A DNA stretch of 32,000 nt from Candidatus Saccharimonadota bacterium (GTDB taxonomy: Bacteria; Patescibacteriota; Gracilibacteria; UBA1369; 2-02-FULL-48-14): NCBI GenBank assembly GCA_041661045.1, contig JBAZVE010000001.1, forward strand, positions 90,001 to 122,000. Reading direction: 5' to 3'. Both the position numbers and the translations under genes were made by a program. Below the pieces are notes generated by a model, which had not been told where the DNA came from, ran no database searches, and saw nothing but the letters and a program-made list of their open reading frames with translations. Shown here one piece after another: positions 3,278 to 31,931 of this stretch; position 1 is the stretch's first letter; the number at the start of each line of letters is the position of its first letter.

Positions 3278-4062
3278 ACCGCTACTTCAAATTTAATAAA
3301 AGGATCGTGTTCGTAGCCTACGAGTTCGAAGTCTTCAAACTTCAAATCCCAGAAAGGCTTTTTTGCGATTTTTAGGGTGGGGAGTTTTTTGGGGATGCGA
3401 GTGAGCTGCTCTTTCAGGCCCTCGATGTGGTTGAGGTAAATGTGCGCATCCCCCATGGTGTGGGTGAAAATTCCGGGCTCCAGTCCGCACTCCTGCGCCA
3501 CCATCATCATGAGGGCGGCGTAACTCGCGATATTGAAGGGCACCCCGAGCGCGATATCCGCACTGCGTTGGTAGAGTTGGCAGTCGAGGCGGCCTTTGAC
3601 CACATAAAACTGAAAGAACATGTGGCAAGGTGGCAGCGCCATTTTGTCGATCTCCCCCACATTCCAGGCGTTCACAATGAGCCGACGAGAATTGGGATTG
3701 GTTTTGATTTGGTCTATCACATTTTGGATTTGATCGATGTGGCGCCCATCCTTGCTTTCCCAGTCGCGCCACTGTTTTCCATACACGGGCCCCAATTCTC
3801 CGTTTTCATCCGCCCAGGCGTTCCAAATGGGCGTGTGCTGCACGAGATCGTCGTTGATGTTGGTGGACCCGCGCAGAAACCACAGCAATTCATACAAAAC
3901 GGCATCGAACTTCACTTTTTTTGTGGTGAGCAAAGGAAAACCCTCTCGAAGATCGTACTTGCGCTGCATTCCGAAGATCGAGAGGGTCCCGGTTCCAGTT
4001 CTGTCTTCCTTTTTTTCGCCCTTTTCAAGGACTTCTGCGACGAGTGAGAGGTAGTGGTGCAT
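3274..4062 (-). CDS. thyA: thymidylate synthase (ThyA type)
   Basis: [42 protein letters not shown] and [11 protein letters not shown] match ThyA. The start is placed at the internal ATG 4062, which aligns with canonical ThyA N-termini. The ORF track extends to 4149. Confidence 0.92.
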
Positions 4063-4120
4063 AAGGGGGGTGCCAACTTGGTGAGGCAAGATTAGCACCC
4101 CGATGTGGGTGGGGCAACCG

Positions 4121-4339
4121 TCAGTCCATACAGGAAAGGATTCCACCAAGAGGCAGCTGGGTATAACAATCTGTGACTTTATTTACTGTACTTTCTGGGA
4201 TATTCCGCGCCCTAAGGGCATCTCCAACAGACATCGCAATTCCTCTCAAATCGGCGGCTAATTCTGGTGACATTGGCATTGCCCCGTATTGAGTCTCATG
4301 GAGAAAGCGATCGGCGAGTGCATTGATTTGAGCAGTCAT
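4121..4339 (-). CDS. hypothetical small protein, 72 aa
   Basis: ORF sitting 19 nt downstream of the 375-aa ORF and 58 nt upstream of the thyA ATG, on the same strand. No motif recognised. Confidence 0.4.
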
Positions 4340-5486: not shown

Positions 5487-5503
5487 AAATTTTTAGAATA
5501 AAA

Positions 5504-5532
5504 TAAATAAAAATCCCTCTTCTCAGAGGGCT
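5504..5532 (-). terminator. intrinsic-terminator-like hairpin, copy 1 of a 29-nt exact repeat
   Basis: The minus strand reads AGCCCTCTGAGAAGAGGGATTTTTATTTA. The stem is CCCTCT/AGAGGG with a GAGA (GNRA) loop, followed by a T-rich tract. It lies 5 nt after the stop of the 5538.. ORF and 17 nt before the ATG at 5486. Confidence 0.5.
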
Positions 5533-5537
5533 ACAGT

Positions 5538-6290
5538 TCAATGGCAAAGATGTTCTTTCTTAACAAAACGCAAGGACGGTAAAAAAGAACTGCCCACCTG
5601 AGGATTGCCTGCTGCTAATCCAGTAAATGGGGTGTTGCAACGCCGATTAAATGTTGCAATTGCTTGGGTATAATGTTCTGCCATGGCTTCATCAATTGGA
5701 ATTAATGTAATGTCCTGTGTGAGGAATCCGTGACCGTATCGAATGACCTTAAGTTCTGGAAAATAAACCCTCATTCCTGTCACTCCATAGTCACTTAAAT
5801 CGTGAGTTGCGATTTGAGCCTCTAGTAGATCTGAATCTAAGGCTGCAGCCTCTTTCAGCATCAGGTTGACATGCAAAATATTTTCTTCATCTGTATCAGC
5901 AAGGCATTGATTAAAAATTTGCGTATTGAGTGCAGATAGTCTTCGTGTAGAAATGATCGCAGCGTCTACATCATTTGCACTGAATTCATGCAATTTTTCC
6001 ATGGCTCTTTCGTGAGCTTCTTCACCTTTTGGATAAATAAGAAACGATGGATCCATATATGCGTCCACATCATCCCCTCTTAGTCTTAGCGCTATCACAG
6101 GGCGAATTTTTTCAAGAGGGACTTGTGCGTTATAAATTTTTCTGTGTTGCGGTTGGTATATGCCTTTCATAGTGTAGTGGGTTAAATAAAAATCCCTCTT
6201 CTCAGAGGGCTTAAAGGAGTTGAGTTTGATGTGAATTAAATGTGGCGCACGCGCCAGGCCCTCTGAATTGATTTCAAAGAGTTCCACCAT
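5538..6290 (-). CDS. hypothetical protein, start uncertain (ATG 6290 or ATG 6170; the ORF track uses TTG 6386)
   Basis: The frame is open from 6386 to 5538. The TTG at 6386 coincides with a TTGACT -35-like hexamer. Copy 2 of the terminator-like repeat lies in frame at 6183-6211, 12 nt upstream of the ATG at 6170. Confidence 0.55.
   Translation of the reverse strand: MVELFEINSEGLARAPHLIHIKLNSFKPSEKRDFYLTHYTMKGIYQPQHRKIYNAQVPLEKIRPVIALRLRGDDVDAYMDPSFLIYPKGEEAHERAMEKLHEFSANDVDAAIISTRRLSALNTQIFNQCLADTDEENILHVNLMLKEAAALDSDLLEAQIATHDLSDYGVTGMRVYFPELKVIRYGHGFLTQDITLIPIDEAMAEHYTQAIATFNRRCNTPFTGLAAGNPQVGSSFLPSLRFVKKEHLCH
6183..6211 (-). repeat. copy 2 of the 29-nt exact repeat (terminator-like hairpin plus T tract)
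   Basis: TAAATAAAAATCCCTCTTCTCAGAGGGCT on the plus strand is identical at 5504-5532 and 6183-6211. Confidence 0.85.
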
Positions 6291-6320
6291 TTTTGGGTGT
6301 TTTTTGTGGCGAAATTGTTC

Positions 6321-6386
6321 GTGACTTTTGAATTCATGCTTGCTATGATGTACTCGTACGATAGTACGGACCACGATATTAGTCAA
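6321..6386. promoter_or_regulatory. candidate overlapping divergent promoters with a GTAC-rich inverted repeat
   Basis: Plus strand: GTGACT (6321-6326), 17 nt, TGcTATGAT (6341-6349). Minus strand: TTGACT (6386-6381), 17 nt, TATCGT (6363-6358). Inverted repeat CGTAC-GATA-GTACG at 6355-6368, with GTAC at 6350, 6356 and 6364. Confidence 0.3.
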
Positions 6387-6675: not shown

Positions 6676-7392
6676 ATGAGTGGTAATGACAACGCAACTG
6701 GTTTATCCCCTTTCGATCCCGAAGATTTAGATTACGGCCCTGAGCCCGAGCTTGTTGAAGTGACTTTACGGTTTCCTGATTTGGGTTTTCAAGATGATCT
6801 CGAGGGTTCAGAGCAGCTTGCTTTCCATTCAATCATTGATCAACTTCGAGAGTTTGGGTTGAAATTTCAGCACCTTGCCCTTGATGGGACCTACAGCATG
6901 ACTGGAACGAACCTTAGCCCCGAGCAGTTCCAAGCGGTTGGGGCTTTTTTAAGAAAACTTAAGGATGACACCGTGCTCAGTCAAATCATCTCAACGCTAC
7001 AAGTCCTTCCCCAAGGGGACACTCCTCCGGATGGCGTTCCTCTCCTTATCCAAATAGATGGAGCGCCATTAACACAGGCGCAAGTGCGGGAGGTTCTTGG
7101 TTTTGTGGAAGACTTCGATTTGGACGCTGTTTCAGTCTGTGGCAGTCTTGATGGGCGCGCTGCCACCTTAGATGCTCTTGGCGATACGGACCTCCGAGAG
7201 TCCATGGAGACTTTATTGGGGGAGAGTTTTTCCTTTTCTGGCATTACGCTTCATGCTCCTGACGGGTTCTCACCTCTCGGGCATGACTACCTTAAGACCC
7301 TCTCTGGATGGCTTCGTATTCAGGGTGTTGGTGTCAGTACAAGTTTTTACTCCGTTCGGGCACCAGCAGAAAGCGAGACCGACTTTGAGTAG
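6676..7392 (+). CDS. hypothetical acidic protein, 238 aa
   Basis: ORF 20 nt downstream of the TrpR-like gene, probably in the same operon. The product is Asp/Glu-rich. The 3' end overlaps the convergent YbaK-like gene by 59 nt. Confidence 0.55.
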   Translation: MSGNDNATGLSPFDPEDLDYGPEPELVEVTLRFPDLGFQDDLEGSEQLAFHSIIDQLREFGLKFQHLALDGTYSMTGTNLSPEQFQAVGAFLRKLKDDTVLSQIISTLQVLPQGDTPPDGVPLLIQIDGAPLTQAQVREVLGFVEDFDLDAVSVCGSLDGRAATLDALGDTDLRESMETLLGESFSFSGITLHAPDGFSPLGHDYLKTLSGWLRIQGVGVSTSFYSVRAPAESETDFE

Positions 7393-7834
7393 CTGTAATA
7401 AAAGATTGGATGTCTTCGGCGGAGATGACTAGGGTGGCGGTGTTCACCAAGGGGTGACACTGCAAAGCCTCGCCGCGCAGAGTTTCGTCGAGGATGAGTT
7501 CCACTTGGTGAGTTTTGTCGTTGAAAAGCCCCAGAATGGTGACGGAGCCGGGCTCCACGCCGAGGTGTGTTTTCATAGCCTCCGCGGAGGCAAAATGGAG
7601 CTTGGTTTCGCCCAGTTCTTTTTCCAAAGCTTTCAAATCGGCGCGTTTGTCTTCTTTAATGGACACAATGTAATAGCGGCTTCCGTTTCGATTGGTGATG
7701 AAAAGATTTTTGATTTTTGCGCCGGGCATGGGCGGGCACAGAAGGTTCCCCTCTTCACAGGTGAAAACGGCGGGATGATCGAAGCGCTCGTACGATATAC
7801 CGTGCGCGTCTAAAAAGTTGAGAAGTTCTTGCAT
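7334..7834 (-). CDS. YbaK/ProX-type aminoacyl-tRNA deacylase domain protein
   Basis: MQELLNFLDAHGISYERFDHPAVFTCEE, KNLFITNRNG, LGVEPGSVTILGL and HPLVNTATLVI fit the YbaK/ProRS-associated editing domain. The start is set at ATG 7834, because the ORF-track extension to 8200 runs antisense into rarA. Confidence 0.78.
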   Translation of the reverse strand: MQELLNFLDAHGISYERFDHPAVFTCEEGNLLCPPMPGAKIKNLFITNRNGSRYYIVSIKEDKRADLKALEKELGETKLHFASAEAMKTHLGVEPGSVTILGLFNDKTHQVELILDETLRGEALQCHPLVNTATLVISAEDIQSFITATQSRSRFLLVPERSKNLY

Positions 7835-7882
7835 GGGCCAAGCATAGCATGATCTCCTGATTCGTGTATACTTCAAGCTGCT

Positions 7883-9007
7883 ATGGAGCCTCTTGCAGCC
7901 AAAATACGGCCCAAACAACTGGATGAGTTTTATGGGCAAACCCACCTGGTTGGACCCGGGAAACCTCTCCGCGTGGCGATGGAACAAAAACATCGGTTTT
8001 CCTTTGTTTTGTGGGGGCCGCCCGGTGTTGGAAAAACCACTTTGGCCCGAATGTACGCACAAAGCTTGGAGGCGCAGCTTTTTGAACTCTCCGCGGTTTC
8101 TGCCGGGAAAGCCGACATCAAAGCCATTATGGAGCTGGATTTTTTTGGCCAAGCCCGCGTTTTGTTTTTGGATGAAATCCATCGTTTCAATAAGGCTCAA
8201 CAGGATTTTCTTCTTCCGTTTGTGGAGAGTGGTGAACTCACTTTGATTGGTGCCACCACCGAGAATCCGAGTTTTGAAGTGATTCCGGCGCTGCTCTCAC
8301 GGTGTCGTGTTTTTGTTTTGAATCCATTGGGGAAAGAAGAGATGCAGGAGATTTTGAGTCGCACGGAAATTCCAATGGACGAGGAAGCACGGGATTGGCT
8401 GATTCAAATGGCGGATGGGGATGCGCGCCAAGCTCTCACGGTTTTGGAAAACACGCAGCAGCTCTTTAAAACGGTGACGGTGGAAAGCCTGAAAAATACG
8501 CTCCAATCTAAGTTTTTGCGTTACGACAAAAAGGGCGAGGAGCACTACAATATCATCAGTGCTTTTATTAAAAGTATGCGGGCGAGCCAGCCCGATGCCG
8601 CTTTGTATTATTTGGCCCGAATGATCGAATCCGGAGAGGACCCCAAGTTTATTGCGCGACGCATGGTGATTTTTGCGAGTGAAGACATTGGACTCGCCAT
8701 GCCCACCGCGCTGGTGGTGGCCAACGAGGTCTTTCGCGCAGTGGAAACCATTGGTCTTCCCGAATGCGCGCTCAATTTGGCTCACGGAGTCGCCTACCTT
8801 TCGCAGTGTAAAAAAGACCGGAGCGTGAATGATGCGCTCAAGGCCGCCATGGCCGATGCCGAGCAATACGGCAATTTGCCTGTACCCCTCATGCTCCGCA
8901 ACGCACCGACCAAACTCATGAAAGAGCTGGATTATGGCAAAGGTTATGAGAAATACTCCAAAGCAGATTTCCTTCCGGAAAAACTGAAGGGGAGGAAATA
9001 TCTTTAA
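7883..9007 (+). CDS. rarA: replication-associated recombination protein A (AAA+ ATPase RarA/MgsA)
   Basis: [22 protein letters not shown], Walker [23 protein letters not shown], and the C-terminal MgsA-type block [28 protein letters not shown]. Confidence 0.9.
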
Positions 9008-9016
9008 GTCGGATTT

Positions 9017-9856
9017 ATGGAATTGAATGAACGACCACTACTGCTTCTGGATGGGGACAATACCCTGTGGAAGTGGATGGAGTATGCGGTGCCCGCGTAT
9101 GAGGCGATGTGTGCTGTGATTGCGCAAATGGCCGGAAAGACGAAGATCGAAACGGCGGCGGCCATGAAGAGAGTTTACAGTCGAAAAAGGACCATTGAGA
9201 ATGTGCTGCTCATTCAAGGACTCAAGGAAGATGGCTTTTTTAATGGCGTAAGGAATTTTGATGAAAATGAAGCCATCCGTATCGCTATGCGAACATTTAG
9301 TCGTGTGCGCAGTCAGCATTTGCAGCTGTATCCCGGAGTGAAGGAAGTGATGGAAACGGCGCACAAAAAAGGGTGGCGGCAAATCATGCTCACCGACGCG
9401 CCTGGGCACCAAGCTCGCCGCCGGCTGGAGCGCACGGGCGTAGACCATTTGGTGGAATGTATTTTTGCCATGCCCACCGGTTCCGACTTACCCCCGTCCA
9501 AGGCTCGTTATCGTGGACTTCGGGAATCACCGATTCCTGTCTTTGAGGTCGAGCACGAAAAACCTTACACCGATTTGGAGGGGATTTTGAAGATGACGCG
9601 AGATCAAATCCGTGCACTTGTTTATATGTGGGGAGATAACGACAAAAAAGATATGGAATTGGCACGAAGATGGGGCATGCGTGGCCTTTTTGCCGTGTAC
9701 GGAGGTTCTGATCCTGATCTGAGCGCCCGCCTCCAACCCTTTGCACCCGAGAGCGTGCTTCGACGAAACAGCAGTCTCCTTGAGGCTGAATCGAGGAGCA
9801 GTCATGGTCTCATCACCCCCATCCATCATCCTTTTGAGGTTTTGAGCGTGCTGTAG
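9017..9856 (+). CDS. HAD-superfamily hydrolase
   Basis: Motif I LLLDGDNTLW (DxDxT) and a late acidic motif WGDNDKKDMELA. Confidence 0.65.
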   Translation: MELNERPLLLLDGDNTLWKWMEYAVPAYEAMCAVIAQMAGKTKIETAAAMKRVYSRKRTIENVLLIQGLKEDGFFNGVRNFDENEAIRIAMRTFSRVRSQHLQLYPGVKEVMETAHKKGWRQIMLTDAPGHQARRRLERTGVDHLVECIFAMPTGSDLPPSKARYRGLRESPIPVFEVEHEKPYTDLEGILKMTRDQIRALVYMWGDNDKKDMELARRWGMRGLFAVYGGSDPDLSARLQPFAPESVLRRNSSLLEAESRSSHGLITPIHHPFEVLSVL

Positions 9857-9878
9857 ATTGTCTGAAGAGACTTGCTGA

Positions 9879-11324
9879 TCAGCGCCCATATATCACATAG
9901 ACGGCTCCTGCATCAACGCTGGTACTGTTGTTTCCGGAGGCACCCACAAGGATGTCCGCCAGTCCATCTCCATTTAAATCTCCCGTGGCAACCTGGTTCG
10001 CCGCATAATCGTTTTCAGCCTCTCCAAGCAATTTTATAGCAGAAGGTGAAGAAAGCCGGAAGGAGCTGAATCTCTCCTCTTGACCTCTTACGATGTAAAC
10101 TGCTCCGGCATCATTAGCGGCTTCATCCTGACCCACAGCTCCTATGATGATTTCACTCCACCCGTCTCCATCCTGGTCTGCCACGGCAATCGTTTTCCCA
10201 GCGTAATCACCCATATCTTCTCCTGTGAATTTTACGACACTGGTGTCGCTCAACACCATGGAACTTAATGTGGTAGAACTTCCATAAATCAAATATACGG
10301 CCCCTGCATCTACGCCTGCATCATCATTATAACTAGGTATTAAAATTTCTCCGAAACCGTCTCTATTGATGTCCCCGACCTTTAATTGTTCACACAAACA
10401 ATCTCCCATGGCTTCTCCCGTAAGTTGAACCATACTTGCGTCACTCAGGAAATTTTCACCGCTGAGGTCGCTTGATCCATAAATCAAATACACTGCTCCA
10501 GCTGCATCTCCCCCGTCATCATTACCTGATGCTGAAGTTAAGATATCTTCAAGACCATCTCCATTGATGTCTCCAATGGCTATGGAACTCCCTGCATGAT
10601 CAAAAGGATTTTCTCCCACCCAAGTTGCCGTACTGGCGTCCAATAAACTCATCGATGTGAGCTCTGAGTCTTGGCCTTTTATAAGGTAAATTTTGCCGTC
10701 GTAGTTGTCGACATCCGAATAACCGTATCCTTTCGCGCTCACCACAATGTCATCATAACCATCTCCATCTGTATCCCCAACACTCACGGCAGATCCAGCT
10801 GCATCCGATGCTCCTTCACCGGTAAACTTTGGCAAGGTTCCATCCAGAAAATCTAAAGATCCTGTCCGGCCCGCGTGTCCATAAATAATATAAATCGCTC
10901 CCGCGTTCCCTCCGGCGTCATCATCTCCTTGATCTGCCACGACTACATCTTCAAAACCATCTGCGTTCAAATCACCCACCGCAAGCGCGCCGCCCAGGTA
11001 ACCTGAGGACCTCAAACTCGTGTCTCCTGTCCATACTGCAATGCTACTCCCAGAAAGGATGGTGTCACCTCGATATCGTCCTGCCTTTCCCCGTGCTATA
11101 TAAATAGTGTTTTTGCTGGGGGCGGCAAGGATGGATTCGTCGTAACCATCGCCGTTCAAATCACCCGTAGCTATGTCTGTTCCTACTGATGCATCATAAC
11201 TTGGCCCCTGAAATTGGGCGAATGACTCAAGGGAAAGTGTCGCGGCTTGCGTCAAGGGAATGATAAGGAGGCCTGTCAAAATTAGAAGAACGGGAACTCT
11301 AAGAGCTTTTTGTGTAGAGATCAT
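9879..11324 (-). CDS. secreted FG-GAP repeat protein (predicted seven-bladed beta-propeller)
   Basis: N-terminal signal-like segment VPVLLILTGLLIIPLTQAA. Seven GD(L/I/T)NxDGxxD(I/V)(L/V)V calcium-loop repeats are spaced about 60 aa apart, each followed by AGAVY(L/I)IYG-like strands. Confidence 0.85.
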   Translation of the reverse strand: MISTQKALRVPVLLILTGLLIIPLTQAATLSLESFAQFQGPSYDASVGTDIATGDLNGDGYDESILAAPSKNTIYIARGKAGRYRGDTILSGSSIAVWTGDTSLRSSGYLGGALAVGDLNADGFEDVVVADQGDDDAGGNAGAIYIIYGHAGRTGSLDFLDGTLPKFTGEGASDAAGSAVSVGDTDGDGYDDIVVSAKGYGYSDVDNYDGKIYLIKGQDSELTSMSLLDASTATWVGENPFDHAGSSIAIGDINGDGLEDILTSASGNDDGGDAAGAVYLIYGSSDLSGENFLSDASMVQLTGEAMGDCLCEQLKVGDINRDGFGEILIPSYNDDAGVDAGAVYLIYGSSTTLSSMVLSDTSVVKFTGEDMGDYAGKTIAVADQDGDGWSEIIIGAVGQDEAANDAGAVYIVRGQEERFSSFRLSSPSAIKLLGEAENDYAANQVATGDLNGDGLADILVGASGNNSTSVDAGAVYVIYGR

Positions 11325-11375
11325 AGTGATGAATAAAGATTTTTACACAAACATTTGACCTCAAATGCTTTATGG

Positions 11376-11428
11376 TTGTCAATTGATCTGACGAAGATGG
11401 AGCAGCAAACTGGAAGAAATTCGGACTT
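11376..11428 (-). repeat. degenerate copy 1 of the tRNA-Gly 3' end plus flank (att-like)
   Basis: The minus strand reads AAGTCCGAATTTCTTCCAGTTTGCTGCTCCA followed by TCTTCGTCAGATCAATTGACAA. CCAGTTTGCTGCTCCA matches the tRNA's CCCGTTACCTGCTCCA at 13 of 16 positions without gaps. The post-CCA TTCGTC is shared with the tRNA flank ACATTCGTCGTG. Confidence 0.6.
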
Positions 11429-11431
11429 GGT

Positions 11432-11827
11432 TTAATCTTTAGAAGGTCTCGGTAGGCTCGTGAGATATACTCTGATTTTTTGCTCATCGCCTGCTGCACC
11501 TCCATTTTCCTCGACCCTTTCATAAGTTGCAAAATGACCCCCGTCAGGCTCTGCTAAGGCCCCTCTATTTGCAAAACCAATAGTAAATCCCCCGATTTTC
11601 ACACCTTTAGGGATTCTTGGCCCCTTCCAAGACAATTCATATACTGTCGTAACCAATTGCGCGACTCTCTCTCTAATACGCTGTAGCGCTGCTTCTTGAT
11701 GAGAAAGGGGGGCAGTAGCATCCTTGTAACCTGGTTTCCCCGTAAGATCAACTGGCGTTACGGGTCTATTTGTCGCCCCAGAGGAAATCTTTCTTAAGAG
11801 AACATCGCGTACTTCATCAGAAGGCAT
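11432..11827 (-). CDS. hypothetical protein, 131 aa
   Basis: ORF lying between the two tRNA-Gly-like repeat copies. No motif recognised. Confidence 0.5.
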   Translation of the reverse strand: MPSDEVRDVLLRKISSGATNRPVTPVDLTGKPGYKDATAPLSHQEAALQRIRERVAQLVTTVYELSWKGPRIPKGVKIGGFTIGFANRGALAEPDGGHFATYERVEENGGAAGDEQKIRVYLTSLPRPSKD

Positions 11828-11872
11828 ACCAAAACAATTAGGTTAGGTATAACTAAGCATAAACTCTATATT

Positions 11873-11915
11873 TTGTCAATGGAGCAGCAAGTAAGACCAA
11901 AATTTTCGGGCCCGT
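11873..11915 (-). repeat. degenerate copy 2 of the tRNA-Gly 3' end (att-like)
   Basis: The minus strand reads ACGGGCCCGAAAATTTTGGTCTTACTTGCTGCTCCA followed by TTGACAA. It shares the ACGGG, CGA, TTAC and CTGCTCCA blocks with the tRNA T-arm and acceptor end, and TGGAGCAGCAA (plus strand, 11 nt exact) with copy 1. Confidence 0.55.
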
Positions 11916-11931
11916 TACTTCTTGAGAGATC

Positions 11932-13041
11932 TCATGAATGTAAAGAGCTTGAAAAGCTTTTTGAATCAACTGAATAAGGCCAAAATTCTTCTCGATCCGT
12001 TACTTCTTTAGAAACCTCCCGTAAGAGTGCGAGTAAGGCAACTACGAGTCTCGCACTTGATTTATCGTCTTCATGATCACTTCTTGCGCCTCGTAAGCAG
12101 TTTATAGCTATACTTGCTCTACGACCAACATAGCCAAATTGGCGATCAGTACCGTAACAGAGTTCGTACATTCTTTGTATGAACTGCCTTTTTTCATTGT
12201 CTCCTGTATCTTCCTTAGCTATTAAATCCCACAATTCTATAAGTAAAGTCCTGCCAAGGTTCAGTGCAAACAGATGTTCCCCCTGAGAATCTCCGTGTGT
12301 TTTTTTCAAATCTGCCAAATTCATCATCGGCATCGCCGCATATTGTACAAAAGGTGGATATGCGTCCACAACTTTTTTTGGTGCGCCACTCTCTTTCGTG
12401 GTTTCTCCAAATGACAGTAATTTTTGCTTCAACTCTACAAAAAAGCTTGCATCTTCTGAATGTTGTGCCAAATAGCTTTCTTTCCCTTTTTCTAGCATTA
12501 GATCAAATAGTGCTTTGGAAGAAGTCCCTTCAGAAGAAAATTCCTCAAGCATTTCATCAAAACTTAATCTTAAAAAGTCTTCCATTCGTGGAAATTTTTG
12601 CTTAATCTTAAAAAGAACATCTTCAGGATCCAAATCCCTTGTGTCTATAGACCATCCATCATTTGGCCCCGAAAGCCCTACCTTCCCATCCAAAATGTCC
12701 TGGATGCCACTTGCATGTCTTGCTAGTTGCCTTCCCATGTCAGCAAGCACAACTTGTTCAGGAGATCTATAAGTGATTTTTTCGATACTGTCGGCCTCTA
12801 TCCCTGGGTATAAAATCCTTAAAGCTGTGGGTAGATCGATACCTGAATCCCTGCTTGCAGTTTGTAATGCAATTGAGTAGGTTGTTTTTCGCCCATTGAA
12901 TGCGCGTGATACAAAGGCATCAGCTGTTTGTGGGAATTGTTGACGAAAGGATTGAAGAGATTCTTGAGATGGTAATTCGAGCACAAGTATACCGTCTTCT
13001 CTTGTCTCACAAATTGGTGTAGTAGCTCCAAGGCCTTTCAT
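11932..13041 (-). CDS. hypothetical protein, about 369 aa, no recognisable domain
   Basis: Long ORF. The start is placed at ATG 13041 (MKGLGATT), because the upstream 90 nt of the ORF-track model contains a consensus promoter whose predicted TSS falls on this ATG. Confidence 0.6.
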   Translation of the reverse strand: MKGLGATTPICETREDGILVLELPSQESLQSFRQQFPQTADAFVSRAFNGRKTTYSIALQTASRDSGIDLPTALRILYPGIEADSIEKITYRSPEQVVLADMGRQLARHASGIQDILDGKVGLSGPNDGWSIDTRDLDPEDVLFKIKQKFPRMEDFLRLSFDEMLEEFSSEGTSSKALFDLMLEKGKESYLAQHSEDASFFVELKQKLLSFGETTKESGAPKKVVDAYPPFVQYAAMPMMNLADLKKTHGDSQGEHLFALNLGRTLLIELWDLIAKEDTGDNEKRQFIQRMYELCYGTDRQFGYVGRRASIAINCLRGARSDHEDDKSSARLVVALLALLREVSKEVTDREEFWPYSVDSKSFSSSLHS

Positions 13042-13047
13042 GTATTT

Positions 13048-13112
13048 ATGATAGCACATATATTTTCTATATGTCAAAGCGATTTGACATATATGCAATA
13101 AGCTGTTATAAT
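13048..13112. promoter_or_regulatory. back-to-back divergent consensus promoters whose -35 boxes form a perfect palindrome
   Basis: Palindrome TATATGTCAAA-gcga-TTTGACATATA at 13068-13093. Plus strand: TTGACA (13084-13089), 17 nt, TGtTATAAT (13104-13112). Minus strand: TTGACA (13077-13072), 18 nt, TGcTATCAT (13056-13048). Confidence 0.65.
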
Positions 13113-13134
13113 TATGTACATTTAATCTCATAGT

Positions 13135-13785
13135 ATGGAAGGTATACTCGATATCTGTTCAAGGCTTGCAGGAGCACCTATTGTTTACCGTGAAGGTACC
13201 AGAGAGTTGATGCGTATGTATATCGCCAAAGGAGGTACAGCTTCTGCTTATAATGTCATCCTACAGGGCCATACCTTTGGCGTACAGAAGGATGGCCGTA
13301 TTACAGGAGACCGTTCTGGCCACATTGAGCGCTTACTTCGAGTTGTTTCTTCAGAAACACCTGACCAAGCTACTGCTTTAGATATTCTTCAGGAGATTCT
13401 CTCTCTTATGAGGAGTGCACGAGAGGCAGTTGGTAGGGTCGTTCCTGTATCTGAAAAACCAGCAGATCCTGTTAGATTTCTAGGTCAATTCCCAAGATTT
13501 AAACCTGAAATTGGAAATCGTTTGAATGAGATGCTTGAGGCAAACCCAAGAGTTAAAATGGTTCCTCGGCACGATCTCTCTCCTGACGGTCGACTCCAAC
13601 GCTTACTCCAAGATCATCGTCTTCTTCTTTTACATGATGCGGGGACTCAAGTTATAGCTCAAGAAGTTGCTGATGCAGAGACATTTCTACAAGTCGCTGG
13701 TGGCGTTGGGTATTATCTTGCCGTGCCAAAAGATGTTGATGGGCTTTTTGATGATTTCTACGCAGTTGCGACGGGAAATGCGTGA
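13135..13785 (+). CDS. hypothetical protein, 216 aa
   Basis: ORF starting 23 nt after the consensus TATAAT box. No motif recognised. Confidence 0.6.
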   Translation: MEGILDICSRLAGAPIVYREGTRELMRMYIAKGGTASAYNVILQGHTFGVQKDGRITGDRSGHIERLLRVVSSETPDQATALDILQEILSLMRSAREAVGRVVPVSEKPADPVRFLGQFPRFKPEIGNRLNEMLEANPRVKMVPRHDLSPDGRLQRLLQDHRLLLLHDAGTQVIAQEVADAETFLQVAGGVGYYLAVPKDVDGLFDDFYAVATGNA

Positions 13786-25095: not shown

Positions 25096-25590
25096 TTAAT
25101 TCACCATCTCCGGATACCCTCCGGCGGCGTTCATTCGTATGACTTGCGTGTATGTACCGGTGTTTTCCGTGAGGACAATGAGTATTTCGGTGAGTGCACT
25201 GGTGCAGTTTTCATTTTCAAAACAAATGGTTCCGTCGGGTGGAAAGTAAAAGATGGCGGCGCTGCCCATGGTGGTGAGCGAAAAATCCTCGGGAAGAATC
25301 AAGGACTCCACTTCTTCCTCCTCCGTACTTCCGTGTGCTTCTAAAACCAGGCCTGTTGGATTAACGGTGAGGAGATAATATTCCGCCGGCTCAGAATCTT
25401 GCACCACCAGTTGATTGAGTGAGTAGGCGCGAGCTTTTTCAATCATTGCCGTGACATTGGCCAGCTCCCCATCGAAACGGGCTTTTAAAATGCCGCGACT
25501 GGTGCTCACGGCCACGGCGGCACTCACAATTGCAAAAATAACAATAACAATGCTGAGTTCAATGAGCGTGAAGGCGCGGGCACTTTTCAT
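25096..25590 (-). CDS. prepilin-type N-terminal domain protein (GspH/FimU-like minor pilin)
   Basis: MKSARAFTLIELSIVIVIFAIV is a class III signal with the hydrophobic helix and a Glu at +5. Confidence 0.75.
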   Translation of the reverse strand: MKSARAFTLIELSIVIVIFAIVSAAVAVSTSRGILKARFDGELANVTAMIEKARAYSLNQLVVQDSEPAEYYLLTVNPTGLVLEAHGSTEEEEVESLILPEDFSLTTMGSAAIFYFPPDGTICFENENCTSALTEILIVLTENTGTYTQVIRMNAAGGYPEMVN

Positions 25591-25618: not shown

Positions 25619-26269
25619 ATGCGCTACGCCAAAGCTGCCGGATCCTTGATTGAAGTGATTGTTGCCGTTACGGTGATTGTTTTGAGCACGGCCGCAGCGC
25701 TTTCCGTGCTGCGCAGTTCCACCGAAGGCATTGAAGTGATCAGTGAAACCACGATCGCACGGAATTTGTCGTACGAGGCCTTTGACGCGTTGCTCAATAT
25801 TCGTGACACCAACTATTTACTCTTTTCCAGCAACCCGGATGGGTGTTGGGACAAGCTCGATGCCACGGATGTGACGCTTTGTGACACCGCCAATGCCATT
25901 ACGGCGGGCAGAAATTATTATTTGGAGCGGGACTTGATGGGAGCCTCTCTTTTAAAGTGGCACCTTCTGGAAATTGAAACGGTGAATTCCAATGAAGGTT
26001 ATTTGGATTTGGTCACTGTTGATTTGGATGAGGATGGCACCATGGACACCCAACTTTATGCGCAAACCGGAGCCACCATCGTGGGCGATATGCTTTCTAT
26101 TCAGGAGGACCATGTTGGGATTTTTAAGCGGACCATTCATATCGATAGCGTGAGTACGGATGAAGCCGGCGTGCCAAACAGTTATGAGGCAACTGTGACT
26201 GTTTCTTGGGATCAAAATGGCATCGAAAAAAGCCTTTCTTTAACACAATCCATTGCACACATTTATTAA
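25619..26269 (+). CDS. prepilin-type N-terminal domain protein (PilV/GspI-like minor pilin)
   Basis: MRYAKAAGSLIEVIVAVTVIVL. A candidate promoter TTTTCA (25584-25589), 17 nt, TATGAT (25607-25612) would make the mRNA leaderless. Confidence 0.68.
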   Translation: MRYAKAAGSLIEVIVAVTVIVLSTAAALSVLRSSTEGIEVISETTIARNLSYEAFDALLNIRDTNYLLFSSNPDGCWDKLDATDVTLCDTANAITAGRNYYLERDLMGASLLKWHLLEIETVNSNEGYLDLVTVDLDEDGTMDTQLYAQTGATIVGDMLSIQEDHVGIFKRTIHIDSVSTDEAGVPNSYEATVTVSWDQNGIEKSLSLTQSIAHIY

Positions 26270-27254
26270 AAACCGCCGGAAGAGTGGCGCGCGCGCCGGA
26301 GCGTACACGCTGGTGGAACTGCTGATTTCCGTTAGTATTTTTGCGATGCTTGCGGTGATTTGTGTGAGTGTTTTGGTGAATAGTCTGGCTTCGGCTCGAC
26401 GACTCTACGCCCAAGTGTTTCTTTATTCCGAGGCCCAGAATTTGATGGATCACTTGGCGCGCGAAGTGGAACGGAGCGCGCTGGATTACGAGGCGTATTA
26501 TCTCCGTTATGGCAACCGTAGCCCCGAGTCCGACTGGAACGCCACCGGCTATGGACTTTATGGGCAAAGTTTTTATCATCCCGGAACCGGCAACACCACT
26601 GTCGGTGGACCTTATTCCACCATCACCGGCTACGGCATACTCTGCAGTGACGGCCTTTCCACCTACCCGGATGGCTGCCCCACCGAAACACCCATCGATG
26701 AGTATAAAGACACCAATACGGGTACTCACCCCTTCACCGGCATCGAAGACTTTTTGGGCTTTTCCACCGAACCCTCCAGCATGAATGCTTTTTGTGAACC
26801 CGGCGGCGCCATCGCCGATTGTTCCTCGCTCAAAACTGCCGTTGTGGAGGAACTTTTGCTCATCAACCGCGCGGGCACCGAACGCATGGCATTCATACAA
26901 GAACTGTCCGATTCCGGCGATGAAGAATATCAAATCTCCAGGCTTGAATTCACCGGCATCGATGACGATTCCGATGGCATTGTGGAGAGCTGGACTCCCG
27001 ATCCTAGCGGTTTTATGCCCCTCACCCCCCCTTCCCTCACCATTGAGCGGTTTCATGTCTTCGTTTCCCCTGTCGAAGACCCCTACCGTGCCTTTGCGGA
27101 AGTGGATATGCAGGTTCAGCCGCAAGTCACCGTTGTCTTCAACGCCACCCTCGGCAACTCTTTTTTTACCCGGCTGCTCGGCCAAACTCCCCGCATCACT
27201 CTGCAGCGAACTTTCTCCACCGGTGTGTACGGTGAGGTGAAGTCGTATGAGTAG
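26253..27254 (+). CDS. prepilin-type N-terminal domain protein (PilW/GspJ-like minor pilin)
   Basis: KSGARAGAYTLVELLISVSIFAMLAV. The start overlaps the previous gene by 17 nt. Confidence 0.7.
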   Translation: MHTFIKNRRKSGARAGAYTLVELLISVSIFAMLAVICVSVLVNSLASARRLYAQVFLYSEAQNLMDHLAREVERSALDYEAYYLRYGNRSPESDWNATGYGLYGQSFYHPGTGNTTVGGPYSTITGYGILCSDGLSTYPDGCPTETPIDEYKDTNTGTHPFTGIEDFLGFSTEPSSMNAFCEPGGAIADCSSLKTAVVEELLLINRAGTERMAFIQELSDSGDEEYQISRLEFTGIDDDSDGIVESWTPDPSGFMPLTPPSLTIERFHVFVSPVEDPYRAFAEVDMQVQPQVTVVFNATLGNSFFTRLLGQTPRITLQRTFSTGVYGEVKSYE

Positions 27255-27280
27255 CCCAAAACATTTATAAAAATCCTCGC

Positions 27281-28432
27281 ATGAAATCACCCCCTTCCAA
27301 GCATTTGCATCCCACCGCGAAGCCCGCTTACGCCCTTATTTTTGCACTGATTTTCATGACTTTTTTCATGATTGTCGTGAGTGGAGTTTCGGAGAAGCTG
27401 AGGGAAAGCTTGGCCACGCAAAGGGATCAGCTCACCCCCATGAAAGCGGAGGCCGCCGCGAAGTCCGCCGCAGACCTGGGTCAACTGGCGATGAAAGAAT
27501 ATGAACCCGGCTACAATATTCCTCTCACAGAAGAGGAATTTGCCAAAGATACCGATGGAGATGGCACCATAGATACTTATGGCAATTTCCAGGTCTACGC
27601 CACCGCTCAGGAAAACGACGGCGACTGGTACACCCCCATCCCCGGCACCGGCTCCGCCGGAGACAGCGACCTATGTCGCACTTCGGACGCAGACCACGAT
27701 GGAGACTTTGAGATTGATAAATCCATAGACCACCCTTGCAACTGGAACCGCCTGGCCTACGGAGACACCGCCATCATCCCCCTTTTCGCCTCCGATGGCC
27801 TCACCACAGACGGCACCCTAAACCCCGCTGCCCTGGACCTCAGCCGCTTCACCCTCCGCCTGCGCACTCCTTGCACCAACGGCAGCCTGGTGGACCCCGA
27901 CTGCGCCCGCCCCGATCTCGATGATGGCGACGGCTCCCTCGAACAAGACTCCTCCCTCGTCTTCTGGCAAATCCTCGGCGAAAAAGCTGACGGAACAAGT
28001 TTGGTGGTGATTCCGAATGATGCGAAGGTCTCCGATGCTCGTACAGGAGAGTCGATTCGAAATAGTAGCCTCAACACCGAAATCTACGAATCTTTGGTAA
28101 ACGATCATATCTTTTCCATGGATTATGAGGTTTTCACCCTCAGTGATTCCATAAACGAAGACATTCACGCTCTCATCCTGGACGAAGGTATCGAGAGAGT
28201 TGCCCTCCAACTGAATATTGTAACCCCGCTTAAGAATGATGAAGATGGCAGCAGCATCCCCTATCTGGAATGGCAAACCGTGAGCAATTCCCTTAATCCC
28301 ATTGCGGACAATAAATCCATCCTTTGGGCGGAAGGCTGGTCTGATGGGATGGGAGGTTCGTACTATTTCTCCAGAAAAATCGTTCGGGACACAATAGGTG
28401 CCGGAAGAAATGTCTACACTCTGTCCAACTGA
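27281..28432 (+). CDS. PilX/GspK-like pilus-associated protein with two DxDxDG calcium-loop motifs
   Basis: The N-terminal AKPAYALIFALIFMTFFMIVV is PilX_N-like and lacks the +5 Glu. DTDGDGTID lies at nt 27548-27574 and DADHDGDFE at nt 27686-27712. Confidence 0.55.
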   Translation: MKSPPSKHLHPTAKPAYALIFALIFMTFFMIVVSGVSEKLRESLATQRDQLTPMKAEAAAKSAADLGQLAMKEYEPGYNIPLTEEEFAKDTDGDGTIDTYGNFQVYATAQENDGDWYTPIPGTGSAGDSDLCRTSDADHDGDFEIDKSIDHPCNWNRLAYGDTAIIPLFASDGLTTDGTLNPAALDLSRFTLRLRTPCTNGSLVDPDCARPDLDDGDGSLEQDSSLVFWQILGEKADGTSLVVIPNDAKVSDARTGESIRNSSLNTEIYESLVNDHIFSMDYEVFTLSDSINEDIHALILDEGIERVALQLNIVTPLKNDEDGSSIPYLEWQTVSNSLNPIADNKSILWAEGWSDGMGGSYYFSRKIVRDTIGAGRNVYTLSN

Positions 28433-28497
28433 TTTTCCACAGAGTGCTTGACTTTTTACTCCTTTTATGGGACATTTATGTTGTCTAATTGTCTATT

Positions 28498-30492
28498 ATG
28501 ACTACTCCTGACAACAATCTGATTCCGGAACAGGATGGTGGTAGCGGTTCACGAGCCGCGACTCCTTCGAGTGGAGGTTCTGCTTCGAAGGCTATCCTTT
28601 TGGCTGCGACTATTGCTGCTGGAGGAGGTGTAGCACGAGCTATTGAACCTGTAGAAGGCGGCGCAGAAAGCACCTGGGTGGACATGGGACCGGATAATCT
28701 GGCGAATGAACCTGGAACGGCAATCACATGTTTTGGTGGAGACCCTGATGGCGCTCATATAAGAGACGAATATGACTTCAGTGAAGCTAGGTGGACGAAT
28801 CTGTATCATGATGGGAGTGCAAGTGGTGTTCATATGGATACTTTGGATGGATTGGTGGAAGAATATGATTCGACCATCGATATGCAGATCCCCTGTGTCA
28901 GTGACTTAGATCCGGAACGAGATCTGATCCTTTTTCAGAATCCAGGTGGAGAAGATTTCGTGGTTGAAGGTTTCTTGAGTACAGGAGCTGTGACTGGCAT
29001 AACTTATTTGGAGGGTGGTGCTTTCTCCTCGGGAGGCACAGAAGATGGCCGCTATATTATGCCACGAGACCCTGGTACTCCTGGTTCTTCGATCAACTTG
29101 TCCGAATTCTCTCCAGAGGGGGATCCTACGGAAGTTTTCTTCGATACAGATGGGTATGACTTAGCAAGCGCAGCTGTAAGCCTGAGTACTAACAGCGTCT
29201 TTGCAGTCAGGGACACAGCTGGTGGACAGGTATATGAATATGATGGGTTTACTACTGGCTCTGGGCATGGAGAAGCACTCACAGGTATCTCTGGCAAACC
29301 TCGCTCCTGGATTGCCGCGGATCGGTCTTCTTCCGGGTACGATCAATTTGCTGTGATCAATTCGGATGGAACGGTTTCTATTGTAACCAATACTTCCACA
29401 GGTCCCGGCTTAGATGCCGATGGAGATGGCTACCCTGTAGCCGCGGATTGTAATGATGGAGATGACTCTATTCATCCCGGTGCGGCAGAGGTTTGTGATG
29501 GTGTGGACAATGACTGTAATACGCTCACCTTGGAAGATGAAGAGGATGGGGATACTTGGTACTTGGACGGTGATGGAGACACCTATGGAGATCCTGACAC
29601 AGCTGTCCGGTCCTGTACCGAGCTTGATGGTTATGTCTCCAATGGAGGCGACTGCAATGACGGTGATAGGGGTAAAAATCGTGAGGTGGATTGCGCGGCG
29701 GCAGAGGCTTGTGCCGAGGGTGGGGAATCTCCTATAGATTCTTATGGCGAAGGTGATGTGATTTGTGGGCCTGATGGAAGTTATACCTTGGTACTCGGTA
29801 CCGGGGATGATGATGCAGTGGATTATTGGGGGGATGGAATGGCCAGTGTTACTGAAGGAGATTGGATAAATTATGCAAACGAAGCAAGCGCTTTGGGCTG
29901 GTTGTTTGATGCAAGCACTTACAATGGATGGGCCGTCGAGACCTCTGGCGAATATGGAGTAGGAGGCTGGGCTTTAGGAACTATAGAGGGTAGCGTAATG
30001 GCCCCTCCGGCTGGACTCAATCCTTCCACTTTTGTTGTGGGATCCGCTTCGGCACTCGCAACGAATGGTGACGGCGTTGAGATTCCGCTCAAACCAGGAA
30101 CTCACGAGCTTGATGGATACCCGGTTGAAACGGATGGCGGTGCCAGCGATGGCGGAAGCGCGGACGGTGGAGGCGCTGACGGTGGCAGTGCGGATGATAC
30201 TGGCGGCGATGGTGGTGCAGTTGGTGATGGAGGTACGGTTGGTGATGGAGGAGCAGACGGTGGAGCTGATGGTGGTGGAACAGATACCGGTCTTGAAGAA
30301 GATGGTGGAAGTACCGATGGTGGCGCCGAAGAACCTGGTGGGTGGAGCTGTAGCGTGTACAACCCTCAGACAGGAAGTATGGTGCCTTTGGTTGTGACCG
30401 GTCTTGCCATGGCAGGACTTGTGGGACGACGAAGACAAAGTCCGAAAAAGAATGTGTCTTCCCAGCAAGCCCCTTTTAGAAAGGCGGCTTAG
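28498..30492 (+). CDS. cell-surface protein with Cys-rich putative metal-binding motifs, a Gly/Asp-rich stalk and an NPQTG sortase-type sorting signal
   Basis: DADGDGYPVAADCNDGDDSIHPGAAEVCDGVDNDCN plus a second degenerate copy. A Gly/Asp-rich DGG(S/G)AD-type low-complexity tract follows. The C-terminus is NPQTG, then the hydrophobic segment SMVPLVVTGLAMAGLVG, then RRRQSPKK. The first ATG is at 28498, whereas the ORF track uses TTG at 28489. Confidence 0.75.
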   Translation: MTTPDNNLIPEQDGGSGSRAATPSSGGSASKAILLAATIAAGGGVARAIEPVEGGAESTWVDMGPDNLANEPGTAITCFGGDPDGAHIRDEYDFSEARWTNLYHDGSASGVHMDTLDGLVEEYDSTIDMQIPCVSDLDPERDLILFQNPGGEDFVVEGFLSTGAVTGITYLEGGAFSSGGTEDGRYIMPRDPGTPGSSINLSEFSPEGDPTEVFFDTDGYDLASAAVSLSTNSVFAVRDTAGGQVYEYDGFTTGSGHGEALTGISGKPRSWIAADRSSSGYDQFAVINSDGTVSIVTNTSTGPGLDADGDGYPVAADCNDGDDSIHPGAAEVCDGVDNDCNTLTLEDEEDGDTWYLDGDGDTYGDPDTAVRSCTELDGYVSNGGDCNDGDRGKNREVDCAAAEACAEGGESPIDSYGEGDVICGPDGSYTLVLGTGDDDAVDYWGDGMASVTEGDWINYANEASALGWLFDASTYNGWAVETSGEYGVGGWALGTIEGSVMAPPAGLNPSTFVVGSASALATNGDGVEIPLKPGTHELDGYPVETDGGASDGGSADGGGADGGSADDTGGDGGAVGDGGTVGDGGADGGADGGGTDTGLEEDGGSTDGGAEEPGGWSCSVYNPQTGSMVPLVVTGLAMAGLVGRRRQSPKKNVSSQQAPFRKAA

Positions 30493-30702
30493 TCGAAAAT
30501 ATGGCCTAATGTATCGCTCAAAGATGAGTTTGTCATACTCATCCAAAATGAGCAGATCGCCAAAGCTCAACGAGTGGTTTTTGAGAATGCCTCTAAAGTG
30601 TAGCTTCTTCTCTAAACCACAAACTGTCATCCAATCCTGACGACAGTAAATGGGCCAAGAACCTGGACAAAGACGGGGGGGGAGAGAATAGTGTAGGCAA
30701 TT

Positions 30703-31323
30703 ATGAAAATACCCATTCACAAGATAAGTGCTCTCCTCCTCCTTCACCTGATGGCTTTTGGTTTGGGCGTCAGCAGTGCTTCTGCTTATGATCTATATGG
30801 TTATCAGTGGGACAGTAGCTCAGTGTCTTATTATATCAATAGTGCTTTTGCGAGTAGTTTTAAAACTGCGATGAAGACTTCTGATGCAAGTTGGGACGCC
30901 GCAGGTGCGGATTTTAGCTTTAGTTATGCTGGGACTACGAGTTCAAATCCAAATGTTTTTTCTGGATATACTTCAGATTCCAGAAGTTCGATTGGTTATT
31001 ACAATGATGGATCTACGGGAGATGTGGCAGGTACTTGGGGCTTTACATCAGGTAGCTCCTTGACCGAAATAGATACCACCTTTAATACTTATTATGGGTT
31101 CACAACTATAGGAACTTCCGGCCAGTATGATGTGCAAAATACTATGACCCATGAATTTGGCCACTGGCTCATGCTAGATGATCTTACTTATAATGGAAGC
31201 CCGTCCTATTGTGCCTCTTCAGCGATGTCTACTATGTGTGGTCGCACTTATCCTGGAAACACCTATCAAAGGTCACTCAGAACCGATGATAAAAATGGTA
31301 TCAAGGCTATTTATGGGACTTGA
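30703..31323 (+). CDS. secreted zinc metalloprotease, metzincin-like (HExxHxxxxxD)
   Basis: Signal peptide ALLLLHLMAFGLGVSSASA, zinc site MTHEFGHWLMLDD and a downstream Met-turn candidate STMCG. Confidence 0.72.
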   Translation: MKIPIHKISALLLLHLMAFGLGVSSASAYDLYGYQWDSSSVSYYINSAFASSFKTAMKTSDASWDAAGADFSFSYAGTTSSNPNVFSGYTSDSRSSIGYYNDGSTGDVAGTWGFTSGSSLTEIDTTFNTYYGFTTIGTSGQYDVQNTMTHEFGHWLMLDDLTYNGSPSYCASSAMSTMCGRTYPGNTYQRSLRTDDKNGIKAIYGT

Positions 31324-31340
31324 TTTATAACTTATAAAAT

Positions 31341-31931
31341 ATGGCATTGAACAGTAAAAACAGCGTGTTAATCCTTAGTCTCGGTACATTTTTGGCTTTA
31401 GGCTTTCTTTCCTCGAATTTTCTTTTTAAGAATAGGGCTATCCCAGTGACTAACGAGCCACCTACTACGGTGTCTTTTCATGCCTTAAGTATTGCGCGCG
31501 ATCTTGATTTGTACACACAGAGTGCCTCTCTCATTGTAATTGGCAGGGTAACAAAGGTGGGTGAACCTTATCTGGAAGATCAAGGTCTTGGTAGTAGACA
31601 AGAGGTCGAACTGGAACTGAGTGAAGTTCTGAAAGGAGATAGAAGTATGACCACGGTAAATGTGCTTGTTCGCGGCTATGAAATCGTTGAAGTTGATGGA
31701 GATGAGGCAACCATTATCCCCGGCAATGAGCCACCTTTATTTGTAGCGGGAGAGTATGTTCTCCTCTTCTTAGGAACAACCAGTCAGGGGGAATATGTGT
31801 CTTTTGCAGGCCCTTATGGTAAATACTTAATCGACAACGAGTTGAATGTGAGCAGCAGTGGCGACTTTTCAATGTCTCTCGAGGAGCTAAAGGAAAAGAT
31901 TAATGCAGTTTTGCAGTCTCAGCCCTTCTAA
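31341..31931 (+). CDS. hypothetical membrane-anchored or secreted protein, 196 aa
   Basis: An N-terminal hydrophobic segment (VLILSLGTFLALGFLSSNFLF). The ORF starts 17 nt after the metalloprotease stop. Confidence 0.55.
   Translation: MALNSKNSVLILSLGTFLALGFLSSNFLFKNRAIPVTNEPPTTVSFHALSIARDLDLYTQSASLIVIGRVTKVGEPYLEDQGLGSRQEVELELSEVLKGDRSMTTVNVLVRGYEIVEVDGDEATIIPGNEPPLFVAGEYVLLFLGTTSQGEYVSFAGPYGKYLIDNELNVSSSGDFSMSLEELKEKINAVLQSQPF

Follow-up and report, generated by a model that had tools for sequence, protein, structure and literature searches.

A putative Cys-type C-terminal tag on the variable surface protein of a minor-pilin operon in Peribacteria-type bacteria

How is a large surface protein held at the cell surface when its C-terminus can be read in two ways? 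The question is raised by a 664-amino-acid (aa) protein, here called the target, that is encoded directly after a set of minor-pilin genes in a 32,000-nucleotide stretch of a genome deposited as Candidatus Saccharimonadota bacterium (assembly GCA_041661045.1, contig JBAZVE010000001.1, positions 90,001 to 122,000; hereafter the window). A first-pass annotation of this DNA had described the target as a sortase substrate with an NPQTG sorting signal, and had offered as an alternative a 'GC-type' tag made up of GGWSCSV, a transmembrane (TM) segment and RRR. On balance, and with modest confidence, we favour a form of the second reading, in which the tail represents a diverged form of a Cys-type tripartite tag that is shared across the lineage and carried by the variable surface 'cargo' protein of a minor-pilin operon.

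A tail with two possible readings

The target terminates in ...EEPGGWSCSVYNPQTGSMVPLVVTGLAMAGLVGRRRQSPKKNVSSQQAPFRKAA, and the anatomy given by the first-pass annotation is found in it as described: NPQTG (aa 622-626) is followed by a 17-residue hydrophobic segment (aa 627-643) and, from aa 644, by RRRQSPKK. This is the geometry of a sortase signal, and the target is the sole open reading frame (ORF) of at least 100 aa in the window with a C-terminal xPxT[GNSA] motif and a hydrophobic segment. The same residues also hold the three parts of a Cys-type tag, namely Cys618, the TM segment and the RRR at aa 644-646. The protein has eleven Cys, of which ten belong to the ectodomain and Cys618 comes last, 195 residues from its nearest neighbour among them. 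The MYXO-CTERM and GC_trans_RRR pattern is Gly-Cys, often GCGC, with a helix that holds neither Pro nor charged residues; the target has GG two residues ahead of its Ser-Cys and a Pro at the outer edge of its helix (SMVPLVV).

Judged by its own sequence, the tail could be either a sortase signal or a Cys-type tag. When it was scanned alone against the NCBIfam curated models, the best match was Rumino_NPXTG (NF033846), at a sub-threshold 16.3-17.1 bits (cut-off 23.5), followed by LPXTG_anchor (TIGR01167) at 13.7 bits (cut-off 15.9). If the target were a sortase substrate, it would be cleaved at NPQT/G and linked to peptidoglycan. The immediate succession of NPQTG, 17 hydrophobic residues and RRR fits this route, the two best sub-threshold models are sortase-signal models, and Peribacteria genomes have been reported to carry one sortase A (PMC4736985). 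Both models nonetheless score below their cut-offs, and a sortase gene is found neither in the window nor at the ~24 related loci.

Tails of the positional homologues

The alignment of the PilX/GspK-like minor pilin encoded just upstream of the target was used to draw 32 loci from JGI metagenomes. Complete proteins were compared from 21 genes: the target, its counterpart at the syntenic locus L002, and 19 genes from the 18 metagenome loci with a complete next gene. At all 18 of these loci, the gene after the PilX/GspK-like pilin encodes a 436-771-aa protein with a tagged tail, laid out (18/18) as a usually acidic low-complexity stretch followed by Gly-Cys, a short polar linker, a TM helix and an Arg/Lys cluster. 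A Cys lies 22-29 residues ahead of the basic cluster in 21/21 complete proteins, the position of the TM segment is conserved across all homologues, and the Arg/Lys cluster comes directly after the helix in 21/21, with 5-27 residues following the TM segment. Gly-Cys is present in all 18 non-redundant tails other than that of the target, and several carry a second Cys. The motif PxT[GNSA] occurs between the Cys and the basic cluster in one of the 21 proteins, the target, and in none of the 20 positional homologues.

The individual homologues bear this out. At L002, where the gene order is that of the window, genes for an HNH-like protein, LeuRS, a divergent pilin and three minor pilin-type proteins precede the gene for a 688-aa protein. 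This protein combines MopE repeats and an acidic stalk with a signal peptide and the tail GGGGCANCSAAYHPDLAALSVLALAGGFALLRRRR, which has no PxTG and passes GC_trans_RRR (TIGR03382; 21.9, cut-off 15.85). The closest full-length homologue, from L087 (39% identity over aa 18-538), ends in GCGEGCQSCGITPMPDSSVAVFGLAMAGGLALRRRRR, or in short form GCGEGCQSCGITPMPDSS-TM-RRRRR; that from L084 (41% identity) ends in TGCATGSTPLSESGVATGMVLATAAAGLARRRRK. The most similar tail, CGCTYNSATGAMLPLVV...RRRR, belongs to the L099 protein, which shares the MopE and middle domains of the target. Its CGCTYNSATGAMLPLVVAAGFLASRRRR is visibly homologous to SCSVYNPQTGSMVPLVVTGLAMAGLVGRRR of the target, with NSATG in place of NPQTG. 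As this closest tail has Ser where the target has Pro, the Pro appears to be a one-off and NPQTG a local accident in the linker.

These comparisons make the sortase reading improbable. Linker composition predicts PxTG by chance in ~0.8% of such tails, an estimate to be read with the selection bias that this tail had been singled out for its NPQTG motif, and 20/20 positional homologues are without the motif, among them the closest one over the full length and the one with the most similar tail. In favour of the sortase reading, the target alone has lost the Gly before its Cys, and this loss could signal a change in how the protein is anchored. With both signal models sub-threshold and no sortase nearby, the NPQTG sorting signal proposed in the first-pass annotation is not supported.

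The alternative that it had offered fares better. Among the 18 non-redundant tails, nine match MYXO-CTERM (TIGR03901) and five match GC_trans_RRR at E <= 0.02. Because the homologues lack PxTG, all share the Cys register and half match MYXO-CTERM or GC_trans_RRR, the GC-type tag is the better reading. From these sequences, the lineage-wide tag would consist of a Gly-Cys signature, ~8-15 linker residues, a TM helix and RRR, resembling MYXO-CTERM and GC_trans_RRR. The enzymes suggested along with this alternative, an exosortase or rhombosortase, are not the classes known for Cys-type tags, for which the published enzyme is a CPBP-family myxosortase (PMC11980579); no enzyme of any of these classes is encoded in the window or related loci.

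A regular-expression scan of the 285 ORFs of these loci found the Cys..TM..basic tail pattern to be essentially confined to the tagged gene. With a leave-one-out hidden Markov model (HMM) built from the other tails, the target ranked fourth of ~1,900 non-training C-termini (11.4 bits, E = 0.024), and two of those outscoring it are tagged proteins near the same operons, at L105 and L097. These two, at L097 16027-16665 (212 aa) and L105 11113-13257 (- strand; 714 aa, convergent with the PilX-like gene), carry further Cys..TM..RRR tails, so some genomes have more than one tagged protein. Each locus has just one or two tagged genes, which go with the pilin operon. The heads of the tagged proteins fall into several unrelated families, mostly without Pfam matches and with occasional PKD, thrombospondin type 3 and MopE units; tail and operon are constant between loci while heads differ.

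Several points weigh against assigning the target to this tag. It is alone in the family in having Ser-Cys rather than Gly-Cys; its tail reaches only 11.1-11.9 bits with MYXO-CTERM (cut-off 20), gives no match to GC_trans_RRR and passes no curated model; its score in the leave-one-out HMM is modest; and its 21-aa cytoplasmic tail is longer than in typical sorting tags. Neither the window nor the neighbourhoods examined encode a CPBP protease, a rhomboid or an exosortase; polytopic membrane proteins encoded close to the operons belong to the MFS, Nramp, DUF1189, FtsK and CHASE2-cyclase groups or have no match. Lipidation, cleavage and a physical link to the pilus are inferred. Finally, bacteria of the Candidate Phyla Radiation (CPR) are believed to have no outer membrane, and the path taken in myxobacteria, across that membrane through a type II secretion system, can therefore not apply literally.

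Some of the same observations would fit a plain type I membrane anchor, in which the helix and Arg cluster are permanent, the Cys serves a disulfide (for example to a pilin) or metal binding, and no dedicated enzyme acts. The lack of a sorting enzyme at any of ~24 loci favours such an anchor, as do the long and variable cytoplasmic tails (5-27 aa) and the place of the target below every curated sorting-signal model; if the cell has no outer membrane, anchoring plus a long stalk would probably suffice for display. Yet Gly-Cys at a fixed distance from the helix persists across unrelated ectodomains, including the 716-aa L100 protein, whose only two Cys both lie inside the tag. Fixed Gly-Cys is the signature of processed Cys-type tags (10.1101/2023.06.07.544157), and half of the tails match the MYXO-CTERM models. 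We regard a plain anchor as less likely but a serious rival, and continue with the Cys-type tag as the preferred reading.

The gene, its ectodomain and its operon

The reading frame of the target (28489..30492, + strand) opens at TTG, and its earliest ATG is at 28498. JGI/IMG (P0121) and the Logan assembly of SRR18595301 (L001, an 8.9-kb contig) each contain a 664-aa product identical to the target. The NCBI call, MFA6023712.1 on a 1,316,577-bp contig, is a 477-aa protein starting at Met188, and omits the signal region and half of the head (window 28498-29058, aa 1-187). Homologues span aa 18-538 and their alignments begin at aa 18-40, so the 664-aa form is real and the NCBI annotation too short. 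All positional homologues share the N-terminal layout of a long polar lead, a hydrophobic core and an Ala-rich end; in the target, VARA/IEP is a possible cleavage site. Promoter and terminator scans around the gene gave background-level results.

Since NCBI labels the organism 'Candidatus Gracilibacteria', genetic code 25 (UGA = Gly) was considered, and was ruled out. Thymidylate synthase (window 3274-4149) stops on TGA precisely where its Pfam profile ends, and the long housekeeping genes for LeuRS and PNPase have no in-frame TGA; on these grounds the standard code applies. The LeuRS is 68% identical to that of a Candidatus Peribacteria metagenome-assembled genome, and the loci are syntenic, which identifies the host, as far as sequence similarity goes, as a Peribacteria/Peregrinibacteria-type CPR bacterium. 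Third-position GC content in the window is 0.29-0.42 in genes for secreted or unknown proteins (4359-6386, 9879-13785, 28498-31931) and 0.55-0.65 in housekeeping genes, a split that suggests a distinct codon-usage class or recent acquisition.

Table 1 Features of the target and its neighbours (window coordinates)
Feature	Position	Strand	Evidence and remarks
Surface-protein gene (target), 664 aa	28498..30492	+	ORF; stop TAG at 30490-30492
N-terminal export region	28498..28647	+	Read from sequence: 31-aa polar n-region, Ala-rich hydrophobic core AILLAATIAAGGGVA (aa 32-46)
Orphan beta-rich 'head' domain, aa ~51-304	28648..29409	+	No Pfam match
MopE-type Cys/Asp region, aa 305-395	29410..29682	+	One complete unit and one half unit
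Middle domain, aa 396-545	29683..30132	+	No Pfam match
Gly/Asp-rich low-complexity stalk, aa 546-614	30133..30339	+	Composition; short imperfect tandem repeats
Tag signature GGWSCSVYNPQTG, aa 615-626	30340..30375	+	Cys618 at 30349-30351; NPQTG (aa 622-626) at 30361-30375
C-terminal TM segment SMVPLVVTGLAMAGLVG, 17 residues, aa 627-643	30376..30426	+	Mean hydropathy 2.0-2.2
Cytoplasmic basic tail RRRQSPKKNVSSQQAPFRKAA, aa 644-664	30427..30489	+	RRR at aa 644-646, RRRQSPKK
Pilin with canonical N-terminal methylation motif, divergent from operon	25096..25590	-	PF07963 29.0 bits, TIGR02532 26.1 bits; syntenic in L002 and L090
Minor pilin-like protein, family F1, first gene of operon	25619..26269	+	N-terminus ...GSLIEVIVAVTVIVL; conserved in 14 loci
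Minor pilin, family F3	26253..27254	+	PF07963 20.6 bits; TIGR02532 16.5, cut-off 16.3; conserved in 10 loci
Large minor pilin of family F0, PilX/GspK-like and lacking Glu5, immediately before target	27281..28432	+	N-terminus KPAYALIFALIFMTFFMIVV
Secreted zinc metalloprotease-like protein (HEFGH), signal peptide	30703..31323	+	Peptidase_M10 24.5 bits, cut-off 24
196-aa protein with N-terminal hydrophobic segment, paired with metalloprotease	31341..31931	+	No family match

The head is nearly without relatives. An exhaustive HMMER search of 1.84 billion representative proteins returned only two partial homologues (P0122 and P0123, each 43% identical), a word-seeded search with the head domain found no protein beyond the query itself, and at other loci unrelated heads take its place. 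AlphaFold2 models, from the single sequence (pLDDT 38) or a four-row head alignment (pLDDT 32), were not usable.

Profile searches for the Cys-rich motif, which the first-pass annotation had proposed, place the region after the head with the MopE-type proteins. Pfam Cu-binding_MopE (PF11617) has one match, at aa 317-341 (40.7 bits, above the gathering cut-off of 27), and PDB entry 2vov (MopE) matches aa 305-342 (E = 2.9e-4). The region aligns to a consensus from 119 MopE-repeat proteins, and mostly MopE-repeat proteins make up the 3,715 matches to the full-length target. Of the two DADGDGYP-type motifs originally described, the first is complete; the second is only a first half (YLDGDGDTYGD...DCNDGD), without PGAxExCDGxDNDC. 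The middle domain is common to the L087, L102 and L099 proteins (33-40% identity).

The Gly/Asp-rich tract of ~70 residues noted by the first-pass annotation is present at aa ~546-614, the 70 residues before the tag having fractions of 0.27 D+E and 0.56 G+S+T. The imperfect tandem DNA repeats that it placed at about 30130-30340 are there in part: Tandem Repeats Finder reports only short imperfect arrays at 30154-30275, with periods of 12-18, 2.4-3.3 copies and 75-88% matches. An acidic low-complexity stalk precedes the tag in nearly all positional homologues. In L001, the sole other assembly carrying the gene, the sequence is identical and there is no difference in stalk length between the two.

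The surroundings of the gene were also described correctly at first pass. Four pilin-type genes precede it, two of them with N_methyl matches (25096-25590, - strand, and 26253-27254, + strand), and the metzincin said to follow is a Peptidase_M10-like protein with a signal peptide and a marginal score. The F3 minor pilin also matches part of Verru_Chthon cassette protein C. The F0 family, found in the window and 24 other loci, is marked by two invariant blocks, DHPCNWN and IPYLEWQ. A 388-aa ORF antisense to the F3 gene (26124-27290, - strand) is almost certainly spurious, since the pilin strand holds the family matches and the conserved synteny.

The operon order is conserved as F1, F3 and F0 followed by the tagged protein; 14 loci next encode a protein with CHASE2 and class III nucleotidyl cyclase domains. 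This adenylate/guanylate cyclase of ~700 aa is encoded at L002 (16114-18204), L084, L087, L088, L090, L092, L095, L096, L097, L103, L109 and L111-L113, and its position suggests that cyclic-nucleotide signalling is coupled to the pilin operon. In both the window and L087, the metalloprotease gene and that of its 196-aa partner lie after the tagged gene and ahead of the cyclase position, and from the order in L087 the cyclase of the target genome is probably encoded just beyond the end of the window. The pair sits in the same place in L087 and is present three times around the cyclase gene (2919-4186, 6942-8842). As a clue to sorting, the metalloprotease was rejected: it scores 30 bits against a cut-off of 250 with 'myxosortase-dependent metalloprotease', in the zinc-site region only, and has no C-terminal tag.

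At L084 (1676-7324) and L092 (3-7070), the minor-pilin operon has an insertion after its second minor pilin and ahead of the PilX-like gene, which encodes a polymorphic-toxin-type protein of 1,882-2,355 aa with Rhs/SpvB/FG-GAP/PT-TG domains. L084 also encodes, immediately before its PilX-like gene, a 622-aa protein with S-layer homology (SLH) domains (8132-10000), consistent with a Gram-positive-like wall bearing secondary cell-wall polymers. Within the window, a 481-aa secreted protein with seven FG-GAP repeats (9879-11324, - strand) fits the integrin-alpha-like class noted in the Peribacteria genome paper (PMC4736985).

Proposed route to the surface and known systems

We propose a route in which the N-terminal signal region would direct Sec export of the protein and the C-terminal helix would hold it in the cytoplasmic membrane, with the Arg cluster inside the cell. 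The acidic Gly/Asp stalk would keep the disulfide-rich ectodomain, made up of the head, the MopE-type motifs and the middle domain, off the membrane. By analogy with MYXO-CTERM, the conserved Cys is probably lipidated, and an intramembrane protease may then clip the helix. The neighbouring pilus or pseudopilus machinery probably transports the protein or displays it on the cell surface, and the fast-changing head would there bind a partner or host cell in the manner of an adhesin.

The closest known parallel in these respects, MYXO-CTERM, has a tail of the same three parts: a Cys that never varies (often as GC, or as GCxC where a second Cys is present), then a TM helix, then an Arg cluster. 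Its carriers likewise have a disordered acidic region before the tag and MopE-type Cys-rich repeats; several positional-homologue tails reach or come near the curated cut-offs, and a genetic link to a pseudopilus-type machine is shared. In Myxococcus xanthus TraA, cleavage by the myxosortase MrtX needs the Cys, lipidation has been proposed, and the protein reaches the cell surface by way of the type II secretion system (PMC11980579). MYXO-CTERM has been reported only from Myxococcota and Bradymonadales (10.1101/2023.06.07.544157), whereas the host here is a CPR bacterium of the Peribacteria type, probably without an outer membrane. A myxobacterial genome has dozens of tagged genes, scattered; here there are one or two per ~20-kb locus, in or near the minor-pilin operon. 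No myxosortase is encoded in the window or related loci, and the target, with its Ser-Cys, is sub-threshold in the models.

JDVT-CTERM, with its enzyme MrtJ in beta- and gamma-proteobacteria (about one client per genome), is similar in being a Cys-type tripartite tag on very few proteins in a fixed neighbourhood. That neighbourhood is a pair of client and CPBP protease, whereas here it consists of minor pilins and the CHASE2 cyclase, with no protease. The JDVT-CTERM model gives ~8 bits on the L002 tail and no match to the target, and the DP motif before the helix is missing here.

Two further systems are similar in layout or position only, as the Pfam scan detected no homology. TraA of Myxococcus xanthus has a variable N-terminal head, which differs strongly between relatives, a stalk of Cys-rich repeats, a disordered region and a Cys-type tag (PMC11980579); the target has no detected similarity to TraA or its PA14-like head, and TraA is not encoded in a pilin operon. 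The tip adhesins PilY1 and PilC are, like the target, large non-pilin proteins encoded right after a PilX-like minor pilin by the most variable gene of the operon. PilY1 differs in having neither a C-terminal TM helix nor a Cys tag, and the Pfam scan of the target found no match to the PilY1/PilC family with its C-terminal beta-propeller, leaving operon position as the shared feature. With LPXTG and NPXTG substrates (TIGR01167, NF033846), the target shares the pentapeptide, the hydrophobic segment and the basic tail, and differs from them in its sub-threshold scores, in a motif found in no homologue and in the lack of a nearby sortase.

The Peribacteria genome paper described type IV pili and large Cys-rich extracellular proteins weakly similar to Myxococcus Cys-rich repeat proteins, and describes neither the Cys tag nor its operon (PMC4736985). 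Full-text literature searches returned no account of a CPR bacterium with Cys-type C-terminal tags. Such tags have so far been described only from Myxococcota, Bradymonadales and a few other lineages, and one fixed in a CPR minor-pilin operon would be new. More tentatively, the locus may represent an undescribed pilus-coupled surface-display system of Peribacteria-type CPR bacteria, in which a Cys tag distantly similar to MYXO-CTERM would mark one or two hypervariable proteins, the adjacent, pseudopilus-like minor-pilin complex would extract them from the membrane and present them at the pilus tip or cell surface as a host-recognition adhesin, the CHASE2 cyclase would report engagement and an unrecognised CPR enzyme would process the tag.

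CPR (Patescibacteria) bacteria live attached to other cells, and to our knowledge their host-recognition molecules are mostly unknown. Type IV pili drive attachment in Saccharibacteria (PMC11623550). As the Cys-tagged, most variable gene of a conserved minor-pilin operon, the locus offers a concrete candidate class for host recognition. It also carries a caution for annotation: an NPQTG tail that looks like a textbook sortase signal can be due to chance, which comes to light only when orthologues are compared. If the tag is processed as in myxobacteria, Cys-type sorting would extend to bacteria thought to be single-membraned; sorting would then be genetically tied to a pilus or pseudopilus machine, and the pickup of tail-anchored or lipidated cargo by that machine would become testable.

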